In this document: positions 1,195 to 49,224 of the stretch, piece after piece
Position numbering within the stretch: the stretch's first letter is position 1
Layout: every line of letters starts with the position of its first letter
NCBI GenBank assembly: GCA_017407205.1
Contig: JAFQXA010000034.1
Coordinates: forward strand, 35,584-99,583
Reading direction: 5' to 3'
Source: Clostridia bacterium
GTDB lineage: Bacteria > Bacillota > Clostridia > Christensenellales > CAG-138
Length of the DNA: 64,000 nt
Translations under genes and position numbers: made by a program
Notes under the pieces: model-generated
Databases searched by the model: none
What the model was told of the DNA's origin: nothing
The model's input: the letters and a program-made list of their open reading frames with translations, nothing else

Positions 1195-1494
1195 TCAAGC
1201 ACTTCTGCTTTCATCCAATGTGCAGAAAAAAAGCTGGTTTGAATTAGATTCACGTTTTACAGTCTTAGGTCTGATACTTCTTGTATACTCATCAGTCAAG
1301 CAAGGTGAAACAGCTTTGCTGTATCTGTTTATGCTCGCCGCTTTTCGAGGCATGACCGCTACTTTTTCGCCGTAATAGCGTGTTTCCCTATGCTCGGACT
1401 CTTTCTTGTAGCTTTCCTCTACTGCTGCTGAGATTAACATTCCGATCAAAATGCCGGGAAGCAAAAAACTAAAAATAATACCTATAATGTTCAT
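1195..1494 (-). CDS. small membrane protein (99 aa): N-terminal TM helix, charged/basic tail; function unknown
   Basis: N-terminus is MNIIGIIFSFLLPGILIGMLISAAV, followed by a polar tail. AAGGAGGA RBS at comp. 1497-1505. Driven by a consensus promoter with an operator in its spacer (see 1593-1622). Confidence 0.6.
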   Translation of the reverse strand: MNIIGIIFSFLLPGILIGMLISAAVEESYKKESEHRETRYYGEKVAVMPRKAASINRYSKAVSPCLTDEYTRSIRPKTVKRESNSNQLFFCTLDESRSA

Positions 1495-1551: not shown

Positions 1552-1569
1552 CCCGAGGTTCCCCTCGGG
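1552..1569 (-). other. GC hairpin in the predicted 5' UTR of the 99-aa ORF
   Basis: CCCGAGG-ttcc-CCTCGGG, a 7-bp perfect stem. Sits between the divergent promoters. Role unknown. Confidence 0.35.
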
Positions 1570-1749: not shown

Positions 1750-2379
1750 ATGAACAGAGTTAAAGAGCTTCGTATGCTTCACGGATTTACCCAAGACGAG
1801 CTTGGCGAAAGGCTTGGAATACAAAAAGCTGCTGTCAGCAAGTACGAAACGGGCCGTGTTCCGCTTCCGCCCGATACTTTAATGAAGCTTTGCGATATTT
1901 TTTCAGTATCGGCGGACTATCTTCTCGGTCGTGATAAGGTAACTCCGTTGTTTAAAAAGAGCCATTCCCTATCAAGCTCCTTCTCCCCGATTACGGAAAC
2001 TGTCGGTGTTCCTCTTGTCGGCAAAGTACACGCAGGACTACCCATGCTCGCAGAAGAAAACATAACCGAATACATTCCTACCCCGGCAGACGATGTTGCA
2101 GTTGACGAGTATTTTTACATGGAGGTTGAAGGTGACTGCATGACGGGTGACTTCATCCCTGAAGGTGCACTTGTATTGGTCAGAATGCAGCCCATGGTTG
2201 AAAACTCGCAAATCGCAGTTGTGCGTCTTGATAACGAAGTTCTGCTTCGTCGTGTTAAACGCCTTGACAAGCACCTTGTTTTGATACCGTCCAATCCAAA
2301 ATATGAGCCTATGATTGTGTCTGGCAATGATGCAAAAATAGTTGGTCGTGTCGTAGAGGTAAGAATACGCGGTCTGTAA
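1750..2379 (+). CDS. LexA-like autocleavable repressor: XRE-type HTH plus S24 peptidase domain
   Basis: The ORF track starts at 1672. I prefer ATG 1750 (MNRVKELRMLHGFTQDELGERLGIQKAAVSKYETG is an XRE HTH). C-terminal half has VGKVHAGLP (Ala-Gly cleavage site), EGDCMTG (LexA GDSM position) and LRRVKR (catalytic Lys region). Confidence 0.85.
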   Translation: MNRVKELRMLHGFTQDELGERLGIQKAAVSKYETGRVPLPPDTLMKLCDIFSVSADYLLGRDKVTPLFKKSHSLSSSFSPITETVGVPLVGKVHAGLPMLAEENITEYIPTPADDVAVDEYFYMEVEGDCMTGDFIPEGALVLVRMQPMVENSQIAVVRLDNEVLLRRVKRLDKHLVLIPSNPKYEPMIVSGNDAKIVGRVVEVRIRGL

Positions 2380-2452: not shown

Positions 2453-2650
2453 TTATTTTGACTTGTAGTACAAAAGGCAATGGCAAAAGCCTTCAAAGTC
2501 GGGATCTTTAATCTGGTCACGGAATTCCTTGCACATACACTTATTATCCTCGGTTCTCTCAAGCCTGCACGGGCAATATCCGCCCGTTTTTTCAAGACCT
2601 TCTTTTATTGCATTTACGATTTCAGCATCCGCATTAAATGTTACTTTCAT
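2453..2650 (-). CDS. ferredoxin-thioredoxin reductase catalytic-subunit-like small Cys protein
   Basis: 65 aa with the CPC...CMC...CHC spacing (GGYCPCRL, KCMCKEF, GFCHCLLY) typical of the FTR beta family. Confidence 0.6.
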   Translation of the reverse strand: MKVTFNADAEIVNAIKEGLEKTGGYCPCRLERTEDNKCMCKEFRDQIKDPDFEGFCHCLLYYKSK

Positions 2651-24206: not shown

Positions 24207-24425
24207 TTAGTTACAGCCACAGCCGCAACCGCAACCTGAGTTGTTTGAATTGCTCATACCACAGCCGCAGCCATTGTCACAGCCGAAGCAGCCGCTGCCG
24301 AAGAGCAAGATTATGATGATCCACCAAATGTTTCCGCAATCATCTTCACAACCGCAGCCTGAGTTACCGAGGAGCAAAAGGATGATGATCCACCACCATG
24401 AATTACCGTTACCAAAGTTGAACAT
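24207..24425 (-). CDS. 72-aa tandem hydrophobic/Cys-Gly-rich micro-protein (YjcZ-like tiny TM protein?)
   Basis: Perfect AAGGAGG RBS 8 nt upstream. Sequence is NSWWWIIILLLLGNSGCGCEDDCG, then NIWWIIIILLFGSGCFGCDNGCGCG, then ...SGCGCGCGCN. Confidence 0.6.
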   Translation of the reverse strand: MFNFGNGNSWWWIIILLLLGNSGCGCEDDCGNIWWIIIILLFGSGCFGCDNGCGCGMSNSNNSGCGCGCGCN

Positions 24426-24530
24426 GTTTATTTCCTCCTTGTTTTTTGCGCTTTCTGCGCTGTTCTACGATATATTACTCAGCTTCTTATGATTGTGTGC
24501 ATCGTTTTCTTGTGTTATAATTAAAAAGTT

Positions 24531-43238: not shown

Positions 43239-46091
43239 CTACTTTTGCTGTAAAATTTTCTTAAGGCAAGCACCTGTATAACTGTTTTTATTTTGTGCAA
43301 CCTCCTCAGGAGTACCGCAAGCTACTACCGTTCCGCCCTTGTCACCGCCATCAGGGCCCATGTCTATTATATAGTCAGCCGTTTTTATAACATCAAGATT
43401 ATGCTCAATGGTTATAACCGTACTGCCTGAGTTTACAAGACGTTTGAGTATCTCAAGCAATCTTTCGACATCCGCCGAATGAAGTCCAGTTGTGGGCTCA
43501 TCAAGTATATAAACAGTTCTTCCCGTATCCCTGCGTGAAAGCTCCGTCGCAAGCTTTACGCGCTGTGCTTCACCGCCTGATAGCGTTGTTGACGGCTGTC
43601 CAAGCTTTATGTAGCCCAAGCCGACATCATAGAGCGTCTGAAGCTTTGATTTAAGGCGTGGAAGAGGTGCAAAGAACTCCAATGCTTCCTCAACTGTCAT
43701 ATCAAGAACATCCGCTATCGTCTTTCCCTTATATTTTACCTCAAGCGTTTCTCTGTTGTATCGCTTGCCTGCACAAACATCGCACGGTACATATACATCG
43801 GGCAAGAAATGCATTTCAATCTTGATTATACCGTCACCACGGCAAGCCTCGCACCGTCCGCCCTTTACATTAAAGCTGAATCTTCCGCCCGTGTAGCCTC
43901 GCATTTTTGCATCTGGAGTCATTGCAAACACTTCGCGCACCAAATCAAAAAGTCCTGTATATGTTGCGGGATTGCTCCTTGGTGTTCTGCCTATGGGTGA
44001 TTGGTCAATATCGATTACCTTGTCAAGATGCGAAATGCCCTCAATATAATCGCACTTTCCACCCGTAGTATGCGCTCTGTTTAAATCATGTAAAAGTCTT
44101 TTCTTCAAAACTTCGTTTATAAGACTTGATTTTCCGCTTCCCGATACACCTGTTACACAAGTAAATACACCAAGCGGAATTTCAACATCTATGTTTTTAA
44201 GGTTATTAGCCTTTGCACCGTGAATTATAAGCTTTTTATCGCTTATCGGTCGTCTTTCCCCGGGCACTTCAATCTTTCTTCTTCCTGACAGGAACTGACC
44301 CGTGATTGACTCTTTACATTTTGATACTTCCTCCACCGTACCCTCTGCAACGATATATCCGCCATGTTCGCCTGCACCGGGACCTATATCAACAATTCTG
44401 TCAGCAGCAAGCATTGTTTCCTCATCGTGCTCGACAACAATGAGTGTGTTTCCCAAATCACGCAATGTTTGAAGCGTTTTTATAAGTTTTTCGTTATCTT
44501 TCTGGTGCAGGCCGATACTCGGCTCATCAAGCACGTACAAAACGCCTACAAGCCCTGATCCGATCTGCGTAGCCAATCTTATTCTCTGTGCTTCACCGCC
44601 CGAGAGTGACGATGCACTTCGGGAGAGAGTCAGGTAATCAAGCCCTACATTCATAAGGAATCCAAGCCTTGAGCGTATTTCCTTGAGTATGAGCATGGAA
44701 ATTTTCTGCTCTTTTTCAGTCAGCACCAGCGAATCGATAAACTCTTGAATTTTACCGATGTTCTTATCGCTTACTTCAGCTATCGACAAGCCCCCTACCT
44801 TAACCGCAAGGCTCTCTTTTTTAAGTCTTTTCCCTTTACATTCGGGGCAAGCTACATGGGACATGTAACGCTCAAGCTCCTGCTTGATGCTTTCAGACTG
44901 CGTATCACGGTACCGTCTTTGAAGATTGTTGACAACGCCTTCAAAAGAAGCCGTAAATGTTCCGCTTCCGTACTCTTTCTCATATGTAACCTTTATCTTT
45001 GTACTGCCCGTACCGTACAAAATCGCGTTTTGTGCCTCCTTGCTTATCTCGCACCAAGGCGTATCCATTGAAAAGCCATAATGCTTTGCAAGTGCTTTGA
45101 AATACATCACGGCAACACCGCCCTCGTTTATGCTCTGCCAGCCGCTCGCCTTGATTGCCCCCTGATTTAACGACAAAGATTTATCGGGAACAATTATATC
45201 GGAGTCAATTGTCAAAAGCTGTCCAAGACCTGCGCAATGCTCACACGCACCGTAAGGATTATTGAAAGAGAACGTTCTCGGTGTAAGTTCGGGCAGACTT
45301 ATATCGCAATCTATGCATGAATAATTCTGTGAATAGAGCTTCTCGCCCTCGCCCACAACATCAATTTTACAAAGCCCGTGGCCGTATGTAAATGCCGTTT
45401 CAAGTGATGACGACAAACGGCTGTCAATATCGTTTTTTATTATGATTCTGTCAACAATAATGTCTATAGTGTGTTTTTTCTGCTTGTCAAGTGCCGGTAC
45501 CTCATTTATATCGTATAAAATGCCGTCAACCTCAACACGCACAAAGCCATCCTTGCGTATTTTTTCAAACAGCTTTTCGAACTCACCCTTGCGCGCTCTT
45601 ACAGCAGGGGCTATTATACGAATTTTCTTTCCCTCGCCCAAAGCTTTCACGCTGTCTACAACCTGGTCAACACTCATCTGCTCTATCGGTTTTCCGCATT
45701 TGGGGCAATGAGGCTTTCCGATATTTGCATACAGAAGCCTGAAATAATCATTTATTTCCGTGATTGTGCCAACAGTTGACCTCGGATTATTGCTTGTGCT
45801 TTTCTGGTCTATTGCAATAGCAGGCGAAAGTCCGCTTATGCTGTCAACATCGGGCTTGTCCGCCTGTCCCAAAAACTGCCTTGCATAAGCAGAAAGCGAC
45901 TCCACATACCTTCGCTGTCCCTCTGCATAGATGGTATCAAAAGCAAGCGAGCTTTTTCCAGAACCCGATAAGCCCGTGAAAACAACAAGCTTATTTCTCG
46001 GTATTGTTATACTTATATTTTTAAGATTATTCGCTCTTGCTCCGCGAATAACTATATTTTCATTCAAATCTCTACTGTCTTTTTTACTCAT
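43239..46091 (-). CDS. uvrA: excinuclease ABC subunit A
   Basis: 950 aa. Two ABC modules ([18 protein letters not shown]) and zinc-finger Cys clusters. Confidence 0.98.
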
Positions 46092-46099
46092 TTATTCAC

Positions 46100-48118
46100 T
46101 CATTTCCTTGTTCTGCTTCTTGCACGCTTTTTGCTTCCTACCGTACCGGGTGCAACCTTGCTTACGCTCTCGTTTTTGCCTTGCAAAGCAAAAAGCTCAT
46201 CACGAAGCTTTGCAGCAGTTTCAAAGTCAAGTTCTGCAGCAGCTTTTTTCATCTGCTCCTTAAGTATTTCTTCCTTCTTTGCCCTGTCACTGTCTGAGAG
46301 CTTATTATCATTCTTAGGCTTACCGGAAATAACTTCGAGCGTGCTTACAGATTTTACTATACTTTGCGGTGTTATTCCATGCTCTTCGTTATACCTTTTC
46401 TGTATTGTGCGGCGTCTTTGAGTTTCATCAATTGCTCGCTGCATGGAATCGGTTATTGTGTCAGCATACATTAAAACCCTGCCGTCTGCATTTCTTGCCG
46501 CTCTGCCTATCGTCTGCACAAGCGAAGTTGTGCTTCGCAAAAAGCCTTCTTTATCAGCATCAAGTATCGCAACAAGCCCGACTTCAGGAATATCCAAGCC
46601 TTCTCTTAAAAGGTTTATGCCGATAAGCACATCAAATTCTCCCATTCGAAGTGCACGTATTATTTCCATTCTCTCGATGGTCTCTATCTCAGAATGCATA
46701 TAACGCACTCTCACTCCCATCGAATCAAAATGCTCGCAAAGCATTTCCGCCATACGTTTCGTAAGCGTTGTAACAAGCGTTCTGTATCCCTTCTGTGCCA
46801 TCAAGCGCACTTCGCCGAGCAAATCATCAACCTGACCTGAAACAGGACGCACCTCAATACTCGGATCGACAAGTCCCGTAGGTCTTATAATCTGCTCTGC
46901 AACAACGCCTGCAAGCTCAAGCTCATACTGAGCAGGAGTTGCGCTTGTGCATATCACCTGATTCAAACGCTCATTAAATTCATCGAATTTCAAAGGTCTG
47001 TTATCGTATGCCGACGGCAAACGGAAACCGAACTCTACAAGATTTTTCTTTCGTGACAAATCACCGTGATACATAGCCCTTACCTGCGGAAGAGTAACAT
47101 GGGACTCGTCTATCAAAAGCAGGAAGTCATCCGGGAAATAATCAAGCAGAGTAAACGGAGGCTCGCCCTCTTTTCTTCCGTCAAAATAACGGGAATAGTT
47201 TTCGATACCTTGGCAGTACCCTATCTCTCGCATCATTTCAATATCATACTGCGTACGCTGCAAAAGACGTTCTGCTTCCAAAGGTTTTTCCTCTGCCTTG
47301 AATTCATCAACGCGCTCAACCAAATCACGTTCAATCATCCCTATTGCTTTTTCAAGCTTTTCCTTGCTCGTAGCATAATGTGATGCAGGGAATATCGCAA
47401 TGTGCGATAAATCAAGCACAACAGCACCGTTAGCTACATTTATCTCGGATATTCTGTCTATTTCGTCACCGAAAAATTCTACCCTTATTGCCCGCTCTTT
47501 CATATTAGACGGGAAAATCTCAAGCACGTCGCCTCGCACACGGAAAGTACCTCTTGCAAAATCGTAATCATTGCGTTGGTACTGTATATCAACAAGCTTA
47601 CGCATAAGCTCGTCCCTATCAAGCGTCATGCCTTTACGCAAAGAAATTGAAAGCTTTAAATACTCCTCAGGATCACCAAGCGCATAAATGCACGAAACCG
47701 ATGCGACAATTATAACATCCCTTCGCTCATTCAAAGCACAGGTTGCACTGTGTCTCATTCTGTCGATTTCATCGTTTACGGTTGCTTCTTTCTCGATATA
47801 TGTATCCGATGAAGCAATATAGGCTTCGGGCTGGTAATAATCATAATAACTGACAAAGAATTCCACCGCATTGTTTGGGAAAAATTCGCGAAATTCCGAG
47901 CATAACTGGGCAGCCAGGGTTTTATTATGTGCCAAAACAAGCGTAGGCTTACCTAAACGCTCAATAATATTTGCCATGGTGAAAGTCTTGCCGCTGCCCG
48001 TAACACCGAGCAATACGTCAAGCTTATCCCCTCTCTTTATTCCATTGACAAGCGTATCTATGGCCTGCGGTTGATCCCCTGTTGCCGAAAACGGAGATAC
48101 CAATTCAAACTTTCCCAA
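46100..48118 (-). CDS. uvrB: excinuclease ABC subunit B
   Basis: 672 aa. [13 protein letters not shown]-terminal UVR domain ([14 protein letters not shown]). TTG start behind AAAGGAG. Confidence 0.98.
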
Positions 48119-48141
48119 GCAATTCTCCTTTTGGTTTACAA

Positions 48142-48163
48142 AAGGGTGCCTTTTGACACCCTT
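48142..48163 (-). terminator. hairpin between the Dabb gene and uvrB (weak terminator or attenuator)
   Basis: Reverse strand: AAGGGTG-tcaaaagg-CACCCTT, followed by TTGTAAACC. Only ~10 nt before the uvrB RBS. Confidence 0.4.
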
Positions 48164-48168
48164 AAAAC

Positions 48169-48450
48169 TTATATCTCGTAATCTACTGAAATACCGCTTT
48201 CAAGTACTGTATGAATATAATCTTTAACCTTTACGTGTTCGGGGTGGTCAGCATATACATCAAGTCCTGCACGGTCATCAAATGTTGCGATAAGCACAAG
48301 ATGATAAGCTCGTGCCGTATCCATAAAGTCAATACCGACTTCCATATTCTTAAGTCCCGGTACTTTTCCGACAAGGTCCATAAGCATGGGCTTGATCTTT
48401 AAAGCTTCATTTTTATCATTATACTTGTGACATACTACGTGTTTAATCAT
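48169..48450 (-). CDS. Dabb (stress-responsive A/B barrel) family protein
   Basis: 93 aa. MIKHVV..., [23 protein letters not shown]. Confidence 0.8.
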
Positions 48451-48456
48451 TTTTCC

Positions 48457-49224
48457 TCACCTGTTCATTTCATATATTTTTTCAAGCCCCTTTAATGTAA
48501 GTGTGGGGTCCACTATATCTATGCAATCAGTTTCCGATGTTATCATGGACGAAAAACCGCCCGTTGCGACAACCTTATATTCTTCCTGCATTTCCTGCTC
48601 AATCTTGCGGATTATGTAATCCACTTGGCCGACATAGCCGTTTATAACACCTGCCTGAACAGCATCCTTCGTGTTTGAGCATACTATCTTATCAGGCTTT
48701 ACATACTCGACTTTATGAAGCATAGCCGCCTTATCCGTCAAAGCATCGGCAGAAACCATGATTCCAGGACAGATAACACCGCCCAAGAACTCGCCTTCGC
48801 GACTTATAACCGAAAAGTTTGTGGCTGTGCCAAAGTCAACTACTATACACGGACCGCCGTATATAGTATAAGCTGCTACAGCGTTGCATATTCTGTCAGT
48901 ACCGAGTGCGGACGGATAATCATACTTTATTTTTAGTCCTAAATTCATATCGCAATTTAAAAGCTTAACTTCTGCATTTTTAAAATACAGCCTGCACATA
49001 TGCTCCATAGTATAATTTATAGAGGGAATAACCGATGAAATCATAACGCCTTCTATATCAAGGGTTGATAAACCCAAATGCGTTAAAAAAGCTTCCATCT
49101 TGATTCCGTATTCATCCGCGGTCTGCTTTAAGTTTGTGGCAAATCGCCAAGAATTTCTAAGTTTTCCGTTTTCAAAAAGTCCCGTCTTTATATTGGTATT
49201 ACCAACATCAAGTACCAAATGCAT
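48457..49224 (-). CDS. coaX: type III pantothenate kinase
   Basis: 255 aa. LVLDVGNTNIKTG, VVDFGTATN, TGG. Confidence 0.93.
   Translation of the reverse strand: MHLVLDVGNTNIKTGLFENGKLRNSWRFATNLKQTADEYGIKMEAFLTHLGLSTLDIEGVMISSVIPSINYTMEHMCRLYFKNAEVKLLNCDMNLGLKIKYDYPSALGTDRICNAVAAYTIYGGPCIVVDFGTATNFSVISREGEFLGGVICPGIMVSADALTDKAAMLHKVEYVKPDKIVCSNTKDAVQAGVINGYVGQVDYIIRKIEQEMQEEYKVVATGGFSSMITSETDCIDIVDPTLTLKGLEKIYEMNR

Follow-up and report, generated by a model that had tools for sequence, protein, structure and literature searches.

The 64,000-nt stretch of contig JAFQXA010000034.1 (assembly GCA_017407205.1) analyzed here, which is referred to as the window, came from a Clostridia bacterium and contained a gene for a 209-residue repressor at positions 1750 to 2379 of the plus strand, including the stop codon. 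The open reading frame (ORF), its translation, and the Pfam matches indicated that the protein had an HTH_3 domain followed by a Peptidase_S24 domain. According to alignments with LexA, both members of the catalytic Ser/Lys dyad were replaced in this repressor, the nucleophile by Cys130 and the general base by Arg167. The reading that we favor on balance is that this is a conserved, chromosomal, autoregulated XRE-S24 repressor that still serves as a self-cleaving switch, that the switch would use a thiol, and that it would control a small membrane protein.

The active-site residues were mapped by using gap-free HMMER alignments to solved LexA structures, and a MAFFT alignment that included E. 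coli LexA and UmuD agreed with the mapping. The numbering offset was constant; specifically, the number of each repressor residue was that of the E. coli LexA residue plus 11. The scissile Ala84-Gly85 bond of LexA corresponded to Ala95-Gly96 in the repressor. The tripeptide His94-Ala95-Gly96 (2029 to 2037, plus strand; CAC at 2029 to 2031, followed by GCA and GGA) aligned with LexA Ala83-Ala84-Gly85, which placed the His at P2. Cys130 (TGC, 2137 to 2139, plus strand) aligned with the nucleophile Ser119, and Arg167 (CGT, 2248 to 2250, plus strand), which is the first Arg of LLRRVKR, aligned with the general base Lys156. Two hallmarks of S24 peptidases, the Ser nucleophile and the Lys base, are thus both replaced. 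Glu163, which was nearly invariant, occupied the position of LexA Glu152.

A preliminary description of the gene had reported a retained Ala-Gly cleavage site and a Cys at the nucleophile position, and the alignments bore out both claims, including the TGC codon of the Cys. It had also stated that the Lys region (LRRVKR) was kept and that the protein carried a natural Cys-Lys dyad, and here the alignments disagreed. The position of the catalytic Lys was occupied by the conserved Arg167, and the Lys of VKR was Lys170 (AAA, 2257 to 2259, plus strand), which aligned with the noncatalytic Lys159 of LexA and was found in 0% of a second group of His-Cys-Arg proteins that is described below. Glu203 and Arg205, both invariant in the clade, were considered as additional catalytic residues and rejected, since many Ser/Lys relatives also had them and the other Arg groups did not.

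An identical protein was found on 14 contigs from independent samples. Among the top 120 homologs (56 to 96% identity), the Cys was present in 119 of the 119 aligned sequences, so it is not strain specific, which was the question that the preliminary description had put to an alignment. In the same set, the Arg was present in 119 of 120 sequences and the Ala-Gly in 119 of 119. The residues His94, Ala95, Gly96, Gly128, Asp129, Cys130, Met131, and Arg167 were invariant in an alignment of 79 sequences, and few segments of that alignment were as well conserved as the cleavage loop (P88 to N104) and GDCM. When GTDB was scanned with one genome for each species, 106 relatives were found, and 80 of their loci were retrieved. 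His-Ala-Gly, GDCM, and the Arg were found in all 80. Nearly all of the hosts were represented by uncultured metagenome-assembled genomes with the label Clostridia, Christensenellaceae, Christensenellales, Ca. Pelethousia, CAG-138, or Feifaniaceae, from gut, rumen, and digesters. The codons of the three residues varied synonymously over 64 loci (CAC or CAT for His, TGC or TGT for Cys, and six codons for Arg), which argues that selection acts on the amino acids.

The covariation of the three residues was examined in representatives of clusters formed at 50% identity and in two further homologue searches; the state of each sequence at P2, nucleophile, and base was recorded, and the sequences were classed against a profile of the clade. 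The core clade collapsed to one cluster representative (363 bits), and the next full-length matches scored about 190 bits. The majority of S24 relatives were Ser/Lys proteins in which P2 was Ala, Ser, Arg, Pro, or Val. A second His-Cys-Arg group (P0165, P0166, P0259, P0270-72, P0279, P0309, P0338, and P0404) was 37 to 40% identical to the query, which was no closer than the Ser/Lys proteins. In addition, there was a small His-Ser-Arg group (P0226, P0387-93, and P0199), as well as four His-Ser-Lys proteins, one Pro-Cys-Lys protein, and one His-Ala-Arg protein.

In a set of 341 sequences in which the core clade was entered once, His at P2 and Arg occurred together in 20 sequences, His without Arg in 4, Arg without His in 6, and neither in 310 (Fisher test, P = 2e-23). 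The corresponding counts for Cys and Arg were 11 with both, 1 with Cys only, 15 with Arg only, and 313 with neither (P = 6e-13). No columns other than those of His94 and Arg167 were shared by every Arg-bearing group while being all but missing in Ser/Lys proteins. By these counts, the substitution is a coupled triple of His94 at P2, Cys130, and Arg167, and the three residues have been held together over deep divergence, whether they had one origin or several. As aligned, the replacements also preserve chemistry, with a nucleophile exchanged for a nucleophile and a cation for a cation.

Two other features of these relatives were recorded. Arg-carrying proteins with degenerate cut sites (QGE, RTD, RGG, HLK, or HAA) were P0389, P0448, P0470, P0473, P0271, and P0259, and cleavage may indeed have been lost in part of this radiation. 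Poly-HTH arrays (P0121, P0122, P0126, and P0161), which were 700 to 2332 residues long and had 8 to 12 tandem XRE HTH matches, also ranked high in the search of cluster representatives.

The domain architecture was clear from profile matches. The N-terminal XRE/HTH_3 DNA-binding domain comprised residues 4 to 58 (1759 to 1923, plus strand; PF01381, E value of 4.1e-13), and the Peptidase_S24 domain comprised residues 88 to 202 (2011 to 2355, plus strand; PF00717, E value of 2.9e-26), with positions 1 to 116 of the 116-position profile covered. The N terminus of the protein read MNRVKELR, and the starts of the homologs all read MNR[LV]KELR. Solved LexA C-terminal domains matched the S24 domain by sequence with E values down to 8e-16. 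In contrast, the LexA winged-helix domain (PF01726) was absent from the N terminus in Pfam and NCBIfam scans, and HTH_3 was found there instead. The match to the NCBIfam LexA model (TIGR00498) was confined to the C-terminal domain (profile positions 75 to 198) and scored 93.3 bits, which is below the cutoff of 110.95. The best PHROG match was phrog_4 (E value of 6.5e-40). The plan of the protein, HTH_3, a variable linker, and S24, is that of CI/HdiR-type XRE-S24 repressors, and the repressor is a member of that family by fold and architecture and not a canonical LexA. The preliminary description had been right in calling it a LexA-type S24 repressor with an XRE rather than a winged-helix DNA-binding domain. 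No second S24 domain was found in the 64-kb window.

An AlphaFold2 model of the repressor had a mean predicted local distance difference test score (pLDDT) of 84.8, with values above 89 in both domains and of about 56 to 57 in the linker. The HTH domain was modeled as five helices with a pLDDT above 90, and the DNA-binding domain of ImmR (7T8I) was a Foldseek match. For the C-terminal domain, the nearest Foldseek matches were the cleavable or RecA-bound LexA structures 1JHE, 8S7G, and 8GMS, with template modeling scores of 0.87 to 0.89 and root mean square deviations of 2.2 to 2.5 Å, whereas the open LexA forms 1JHC, 7B5G, and 7OCJ fit worse (0.78 to 0.81 and 4.0 to 4.5 Å). The values for 1JHE and 8S7G were 0.89 and 2.2 to 2.3 Å. 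In the closed form of LexA, a strand extends to P1 (PMC11787620). The model showed a strand that ran from residue 84 to His94, and its closeness to cleavable LexA fits this description. In LexA, the residues V79, V82, F111, L113, V146, and V153 line the pocket into which RecA Phe203 fits (bioRxiv 10.1101/2023.10.30.564768). The equivalent residues of the repressor were V90, V93, F122, M124, V157, and V164, all of which were hydrophobic and most of which were invariant. As judged from the alignments and the model, the LexA fold, the cut site, the cleavage loop, and the pocket for activated RecA (RecA*) are retained in the S24 domain.

The His-Cys-Arg combination also occurred in prophage-like settings. 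Two genes of the second His-Cys-Arg group were looked up (in the regions 7411 to 9843 of L086 and 2785 to 6635 of L087), and both lay beside a tyrosine integrase gene and were divergent from a small Cro-like HTH_3 gene. Next to the Cro-like gene of L086 came a gene of the HTH_17 (excisionase-like) type and one for SSB. A third His-Cys-Arg repressor (L195, 5534 to 6295) was located on a 43-kb viral contig in IMG/VR. Repressors of the CI type that are part of a lysogeny module should act as inducible switches, so these cases argue that the triad is functional. The core clade itself was absent from IMG/VR, in which the best viral match was 41% identical, and a DNA-pattern scan of IMG/VR for E[YF]F...V.GDCM returned only 2 contigs. 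By these searches, the His-Cys-Arg variant is rare among catalogued phages.

The setting of the repressor in the window was different. No phage genes were found near it, so it does not lie in a lysogeny module, and its neighbors were the housekeeping genes rsmF, degV, ligA, and pcrA. This gene order was kept in only the two closest relatives, and the wider synteny is therefore uninformative on function; in many other relatives, the neighbors were tmk, hflX, and a gene for a beta-propeller protein of about 620 residues. A tblastn search of the window and the 80 related loci (only about 0.9 Mb) found no winged-helix LexA. PADLOC analysis of the locus gave HTH-level matches only and no defense system. 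A 65-residue Cys-rich ORF (2453 to 2650, minus strand) converged on the repressor gene and had a weak match to the catalytic chain of ferredoxin-thioredoxin reductase (PF02943; E value of 4e-5, just above the cutoff). This FeThRed_B-like gene adjoined the repressor in 2 of 81 loci, and beyond the window only the closest relative had it in this place. Farther away in the window, a short ORF (24241 to 24492, plus strand) between two metabolic genes contained an internal Gln/Pro-rich repeat (…PQPQP…KSKIMMIHQ… / …QPQPE…RSKRMMI…) and may stem from a DNA repeat instead of being a gene.

Upstream of the repressor gene, the 255-nt intergenic region contained three copies of a 17-bp palindrome that were spaced 83 and 75 nt apart. 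Predicted operator O1 (GTATCTTGCTAAGATAC; 1516 to 1532) and predicted operator O2 (GTATCTCATCAAGATAC; 1599 to 1615) had perfect arms, and predicted operator O3 (GTTTCCTCATAAGATAC; 1674 to 1690) had one mismatch in the 10-base core; all three were identified as motif matches. Many relatives also had the GTTTC/GAAAC variant seen in O3 at the corresponding position. The consensus was taGTATCY-N5-RGATAC (GTATC-N7-GATAC), and the number of matches in the intergenic region was reached in none of 100 shuffles. Of 73 relatives, 68 had the motif no more than 300 nt upstream of the gene. In total, there were 111 sites in about 22 kb of sequence upstream of homologs, compared with 22 sites in 711 kb elsewhere, which is the number expected by chance.

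The operators coincided with promoter-like elements. On the minus strand, a σ70-type promoter for a divergent small gene (1593 to 1622) matched the consensus at 12 of 12 positions, with TTGACA at 1622 to 1617, an 18-nt spacer, and TATAAT at 1598 to 1593; O2 exactly filled this spacer. On the plus strand, a repressor promoter-like site (TTGAAT, a 17-nt spacer, and TACAAT; 1665 to 1693) matched the consensus at 9 of 12 positions and was assigned by pattern match only; O3 overlapped its spacer and −10 element. The 5′ leader of the small gene, of approximately 90 nt, contained O1 and also, between O1 and O2, a G+C-rich, terminator-like hairpin with a weak T tract (CCCGAGG-GGAA-CCTCGGG; 1552 to 1569, minus strand), which could be an attenuator or a stabilizing structure. 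An Rfam scan of positions 1100 to 2800 gave nothing above threshold. The arrangement of operators and promoters implies that the repressor would repress its own gene and that of the small membrane protein.

The preliminary description had inferred an operator other than the Cheo box, and this was confirmed. A scan of the window for CGAAC-N4-GTTCG with up to 2 mismatches found 15 sites compared with 18 expected by chance, and none was at the repressor promoter, where the palindromes were of the GTATC-N7-GATAC type. Elsewhere in the window, uvrB and uvrA were located at 43239 to 48118 on the minus strand, and the region upstream of them (48119 to 48520) contained neither a GTATC-N7-GATAC operator nor a Cheo box. 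The start of uvrB directly followed a terminator-like hairpin of the preceding gene.

The divergent small gene (1195 to 1494, minus strand) was identified as an ORF whose family adjoins the repressor, and it encodes a 99-residue protein (MNIIGIIFSFLLPGILIGML...) with an N-terminal transmembrane helix. A member of this family of small single-pass membrane proteins was encoded divergently from the repressor in 67 of the 71 loci with enough upstream sequence. The family shared an N-terminal MNYFGLFFSFM.PGI.IG motif, an Arg-rich stretch, and a (K/R)LY[VI].[DST][LM] motif just before the tail. Nearly all members ended in Ala-Ala (…KAA, …RAA, or …NAA), and the copy in the window ended in …SRSA. The Ala-Ala tail resembles, by analogy, a C-terminal degron of the ssrA/ClpXP type. 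Searches with the small protein against Pfam, NCBIfam, PHROGs, and PADLOC gave no match. It also had no sequence similarity to known division inhibitors, which are dissimilar among themselves as well. In the lexA-yneA/sosA/chiZ/divS loci, a gene for a small membrane protein is divergent from lexA (PMC6851548). The repressor locus had the synteny of this Gram-positive lexA/SOS division-inhibitor module, namely, a divergent gene for a protein with a single transmembrane helix and a predicted operator (O2) in its promoter.

Based on these findings, we propose the following mechanism. A repressor dimer would bind the three 17-bp palindromes and occlude both its own promoter and the promoter of the small gene. 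A signal, which would probably be RecA* after DNA damage, would stabilize the closed conformation and lead to intramolecular cleavage at Ala95-Gly96. The nucleophile would be the thiolate of Cys130, with the guanidinium of Arg167 as its partner, and His94, which is on the substrate strand, may act as a proton shuttle. This role is suggested for His94 because P2 and P1′ share one face of an extended strand, and Gly at P1′ leaves room where the nucleophile approaches. Since His94 would remain on the acyl fragment, it could also activate water for deacylation. The dependence of the Cys on the Arg may arise because a buried cation (Arg167) needs a countercharge. Cleavage would derepress the small membrane protein, which is a candidate checkpoint protein or division inhibitor, or a candidate membrane toxin, and which is possibly short-lived through its Ala-Ala tail. 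RecA* is the simplest candidate trigger given that the pocket is conserved, that relatives occur in prophages, and that the synteny is like that of lexA-yneA/sosA. For the XRE-S24 regulator PrlP, the inputs are acid, oxidative, and other stresses rather than the SOS signal (PMC12273997).

Several points weighed against this mechanism. In the window, no GTATC-N7-GATAC site was found upstream of uvrB/uvrA, pcrA, or ligA, and recA lies outside the window; with no operator at these repair genes, the link to DNA damage is drawn by analogy only. The covariation counts are not phylogenetically independent. Moreover, in neighbor-joining trees, the His-Ser-Lys proteins fell loosely together with the Arg-bearing groups, but this grouping lacked bootstrap support and did not separate one origin from several. 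In the second His-Cys-Arg group, the cut site was degenerate in two proteins, P0271 (HLK) and P0259 (HAA). The role proposed for His94 comes from covariation and a geometric argument. Arg is a poor general base. Finally, the K156R form of E. coli LexA is reportedly strongly impaired in cleavage at neutral pH, and the S119C form is said to be partly active.

Some of these points would be expected if the S24 domain were a pseudo-peptidase, that is, a domain without catalysis that functions only in dimerization and cooperative operator binding, with any derepression occurring by another route, for example, through a ligand or an anti-repressor, by dilution, or by the action of an external protease. 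The replacement of both defining catalytic residues, the weakness of Arg as a base, and the clearly degenerate cut sites of some Arg-carrying relatives (QGE, RGG, RTD, and HLK) all point in this direction, and cyanobacterial LexA homologs without cleavage exist (PMC7567884). A dead site should drift, however, and in the repressor clade the Cys, the Arg, His-Ala-Gly, and the whole loop were fixed over 56 to 96% identity and at least 80 species while the codons changed synonymously. In addition, the replacements covaried and conserved chemistry, and prophage repressors beside integrases used the same triad. Self-cleavage is favored because a dead peptidase is not expected to retain an exposed loop and the Ala-Gly bond. 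We therefore regard a noncatalytic S24 domain as a serious but unlikely explanation.

A redox or thiol sensor was a weaker explanation. In this case, oxidation or alkylation of Cys130 would alter repressor activity or block cleavage in strict anaerobes, and proteolysis would be secondary or absent. The invariant Cys, which lies next to an Arg, probably has a low pKa, the hosts are anaerobes of gut, rumen, and digesters, and the XRE-S24 regulator PrlP answers acid and oxidative stress rather than the SOS signal (PMC12273997). Against these points, no second invariant Cys that could form a disulfide was present in the 79-sequence alignment, and the adjoining FeThRed_B-like gene was not conserved (2 of 81 loci). 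A sensing role would also leave unexplained the invariant His-Ala-Gly and the coupling of His and Arg in Ser-containing relatives. We consider this explanation improbable.

A Cys-Lys dyad with Lys170 of LRRVKR as the general base fared worse still. The Lys was 96% conserved in the core clade, but it aligned without gaps with LexA Lys159, three residues past the catalytic position, and this column was Lys in 0% of the second His-Cys-Arg group, 12% of the His-Ser-Arg proteins, and only 25% of the Ser/Lys relatives examined, which makes such a dyad highly improbable. An artifact of sequencing or assembly, or a pseudogene in decay, can practically be dismissed given the identical protein on 14 independent contigs, an intact reading frame with the residues kept in hundreds of homologs, and an intact promoter and operators.

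A more far-reaching version of the self-cleaving switch is possible, and we offer it tentatively. The repressor could be a naturally occurring autoprotease that has the clan SF (LexA/signal-peptidase) fold but uses a thiol, and that arose stepwise from His-Ser-Lys through His-Ser-Arg to His-Cys-Arg, ending in a sortase-like set of residues, with the P2 His limiting catalysis to the closed form. It might then be a DNA-damage checkpoint switch of Christensenellales that possibly replaces LexA and controls an unstable small membrane effector, and its induction might be sensitive to oxygen and oxidants.

LexA, CI, UmuD, and signal-peptidase-type enzymes are taken to be defined by their Ser-Lys dyad, whose presence serves as a routine criterion for whether a homolog is functional (e.g., PMC8565304 and PMC13148647). 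Our literature search turned up no description of a naturally occurring variant of the S24 active site with Cys, Arg, or His and nothing relevant on LexA in Christensenella, and the LexA of Synechocystis was the only natural dyad-less LexA found described. If it is functional, the Cys/Arg/His set would be the first natural thiol variant found for the LexA fold, and annotation based on the dyad would wrongly discard functional switches. The intermediate His-Ser-Lys, His-Ser-Arg, and Cys-Lys proteins outline a possible route for swapping a nucleophile and a base, and they would offer enzymologists a natural test case that includes substrate-assisted catalysis by a P2 His. The module would also be a compact candidate for a DNA-damage or stress checkpoint of Christensenellales, a group of gut anaerobes associated with health in which stress regulation has hardly been studied. 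A thiol nucleophile could tie the induction of a prophage or a checkpoint to the redox state.

The repressor has much in common with LexA (MEROPS S24.001), as characterized in E. coli, B. subtilis, and M. tuberculosis. Both have the C-terminal S24 fold, the Ala-Gly bond, the RecA Phe203 pocket, and a Glu at the position of Glu152 (Glu163 in the repressor). Both are, or are predicted to be, autoregulated through palindromic operators, and Gram-positive lexA loci also have a divergent gene for a small transmembrane protein. Unlike LexA, the repressor has an XRE/HTH_3 domain, GTATC-N7-GATAC operators, Cys in place of Ser119, Arg in place of Lys156, and His in place of the P2 Ala, and its operators were missing at uvrBA, pcrA, and ligA in the window. 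With lambda CI, the phrog_4 family, and L. lactis HdiR, it shares the two-domain plan and multiple operators between divergent promoters, and the His-Cys-Arg relatives in integrase/Cro modules are a further likeness to phage repressors of the CI/HdiR types. In contrast to those repressors, the gene in the window is chromosomal, has a housekeeping context, and encodes other catalytic residues.

Precedents for the individual substitutions come from farther afield. Sortases have a Cys-His-Arg triad, and the residue composition is that of the set seen here; in the picornavirus 3C proteases, a Ser-to-Cys nucleophile swap took place in a chymotrypsin fold, which is a precedent for Ser/Cys exchange within one protease fold. 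The folds are unrelated to that of LexA, and in the repressor the His would come from the substrate strand, so the likeness is one of functional analogy only. Engineered S119C and K156R forms of LexA and the S90C form of leader peptidase reportedly indicate that a thiol can be the nucleophile in clan SF. Those proteins are single mutants made in the laboratory, with activities that are said to be reduced or pH shifted, whereas the change in the repressor is a natural, conserved triple.

In the case of the noncanonical LexA of Bacteroidetes (PMC8565304) and FddR of Francisella (PMC13148647), the Ser-Lys dyad is kept and was taken as evidence of function, and DNA-repair genes are controlled. Like the repressor, these are CI-like XRE-S24 proteins that were recruited as chromosomal regulators and have their own palindromic motifs; unlike them, the repressor has a replaced dyad, and in the sequence examined its operators occurred only at the local two-gene unit. 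The LexA of Synechocystis PCC 6803 has lost both the catalytic Ser and the Ala-Gly bond and does not cleave (PMC7567884). It resembles the repressor in being a natural LexA-family protein without the catalytic Ser. However, the loss of Ala-Gly in that protein fits the decay of a protease, whereas the repressor has an invariant Ala-Gly and an invariant loop, and its replacements, as aligned, keep the chemistry.

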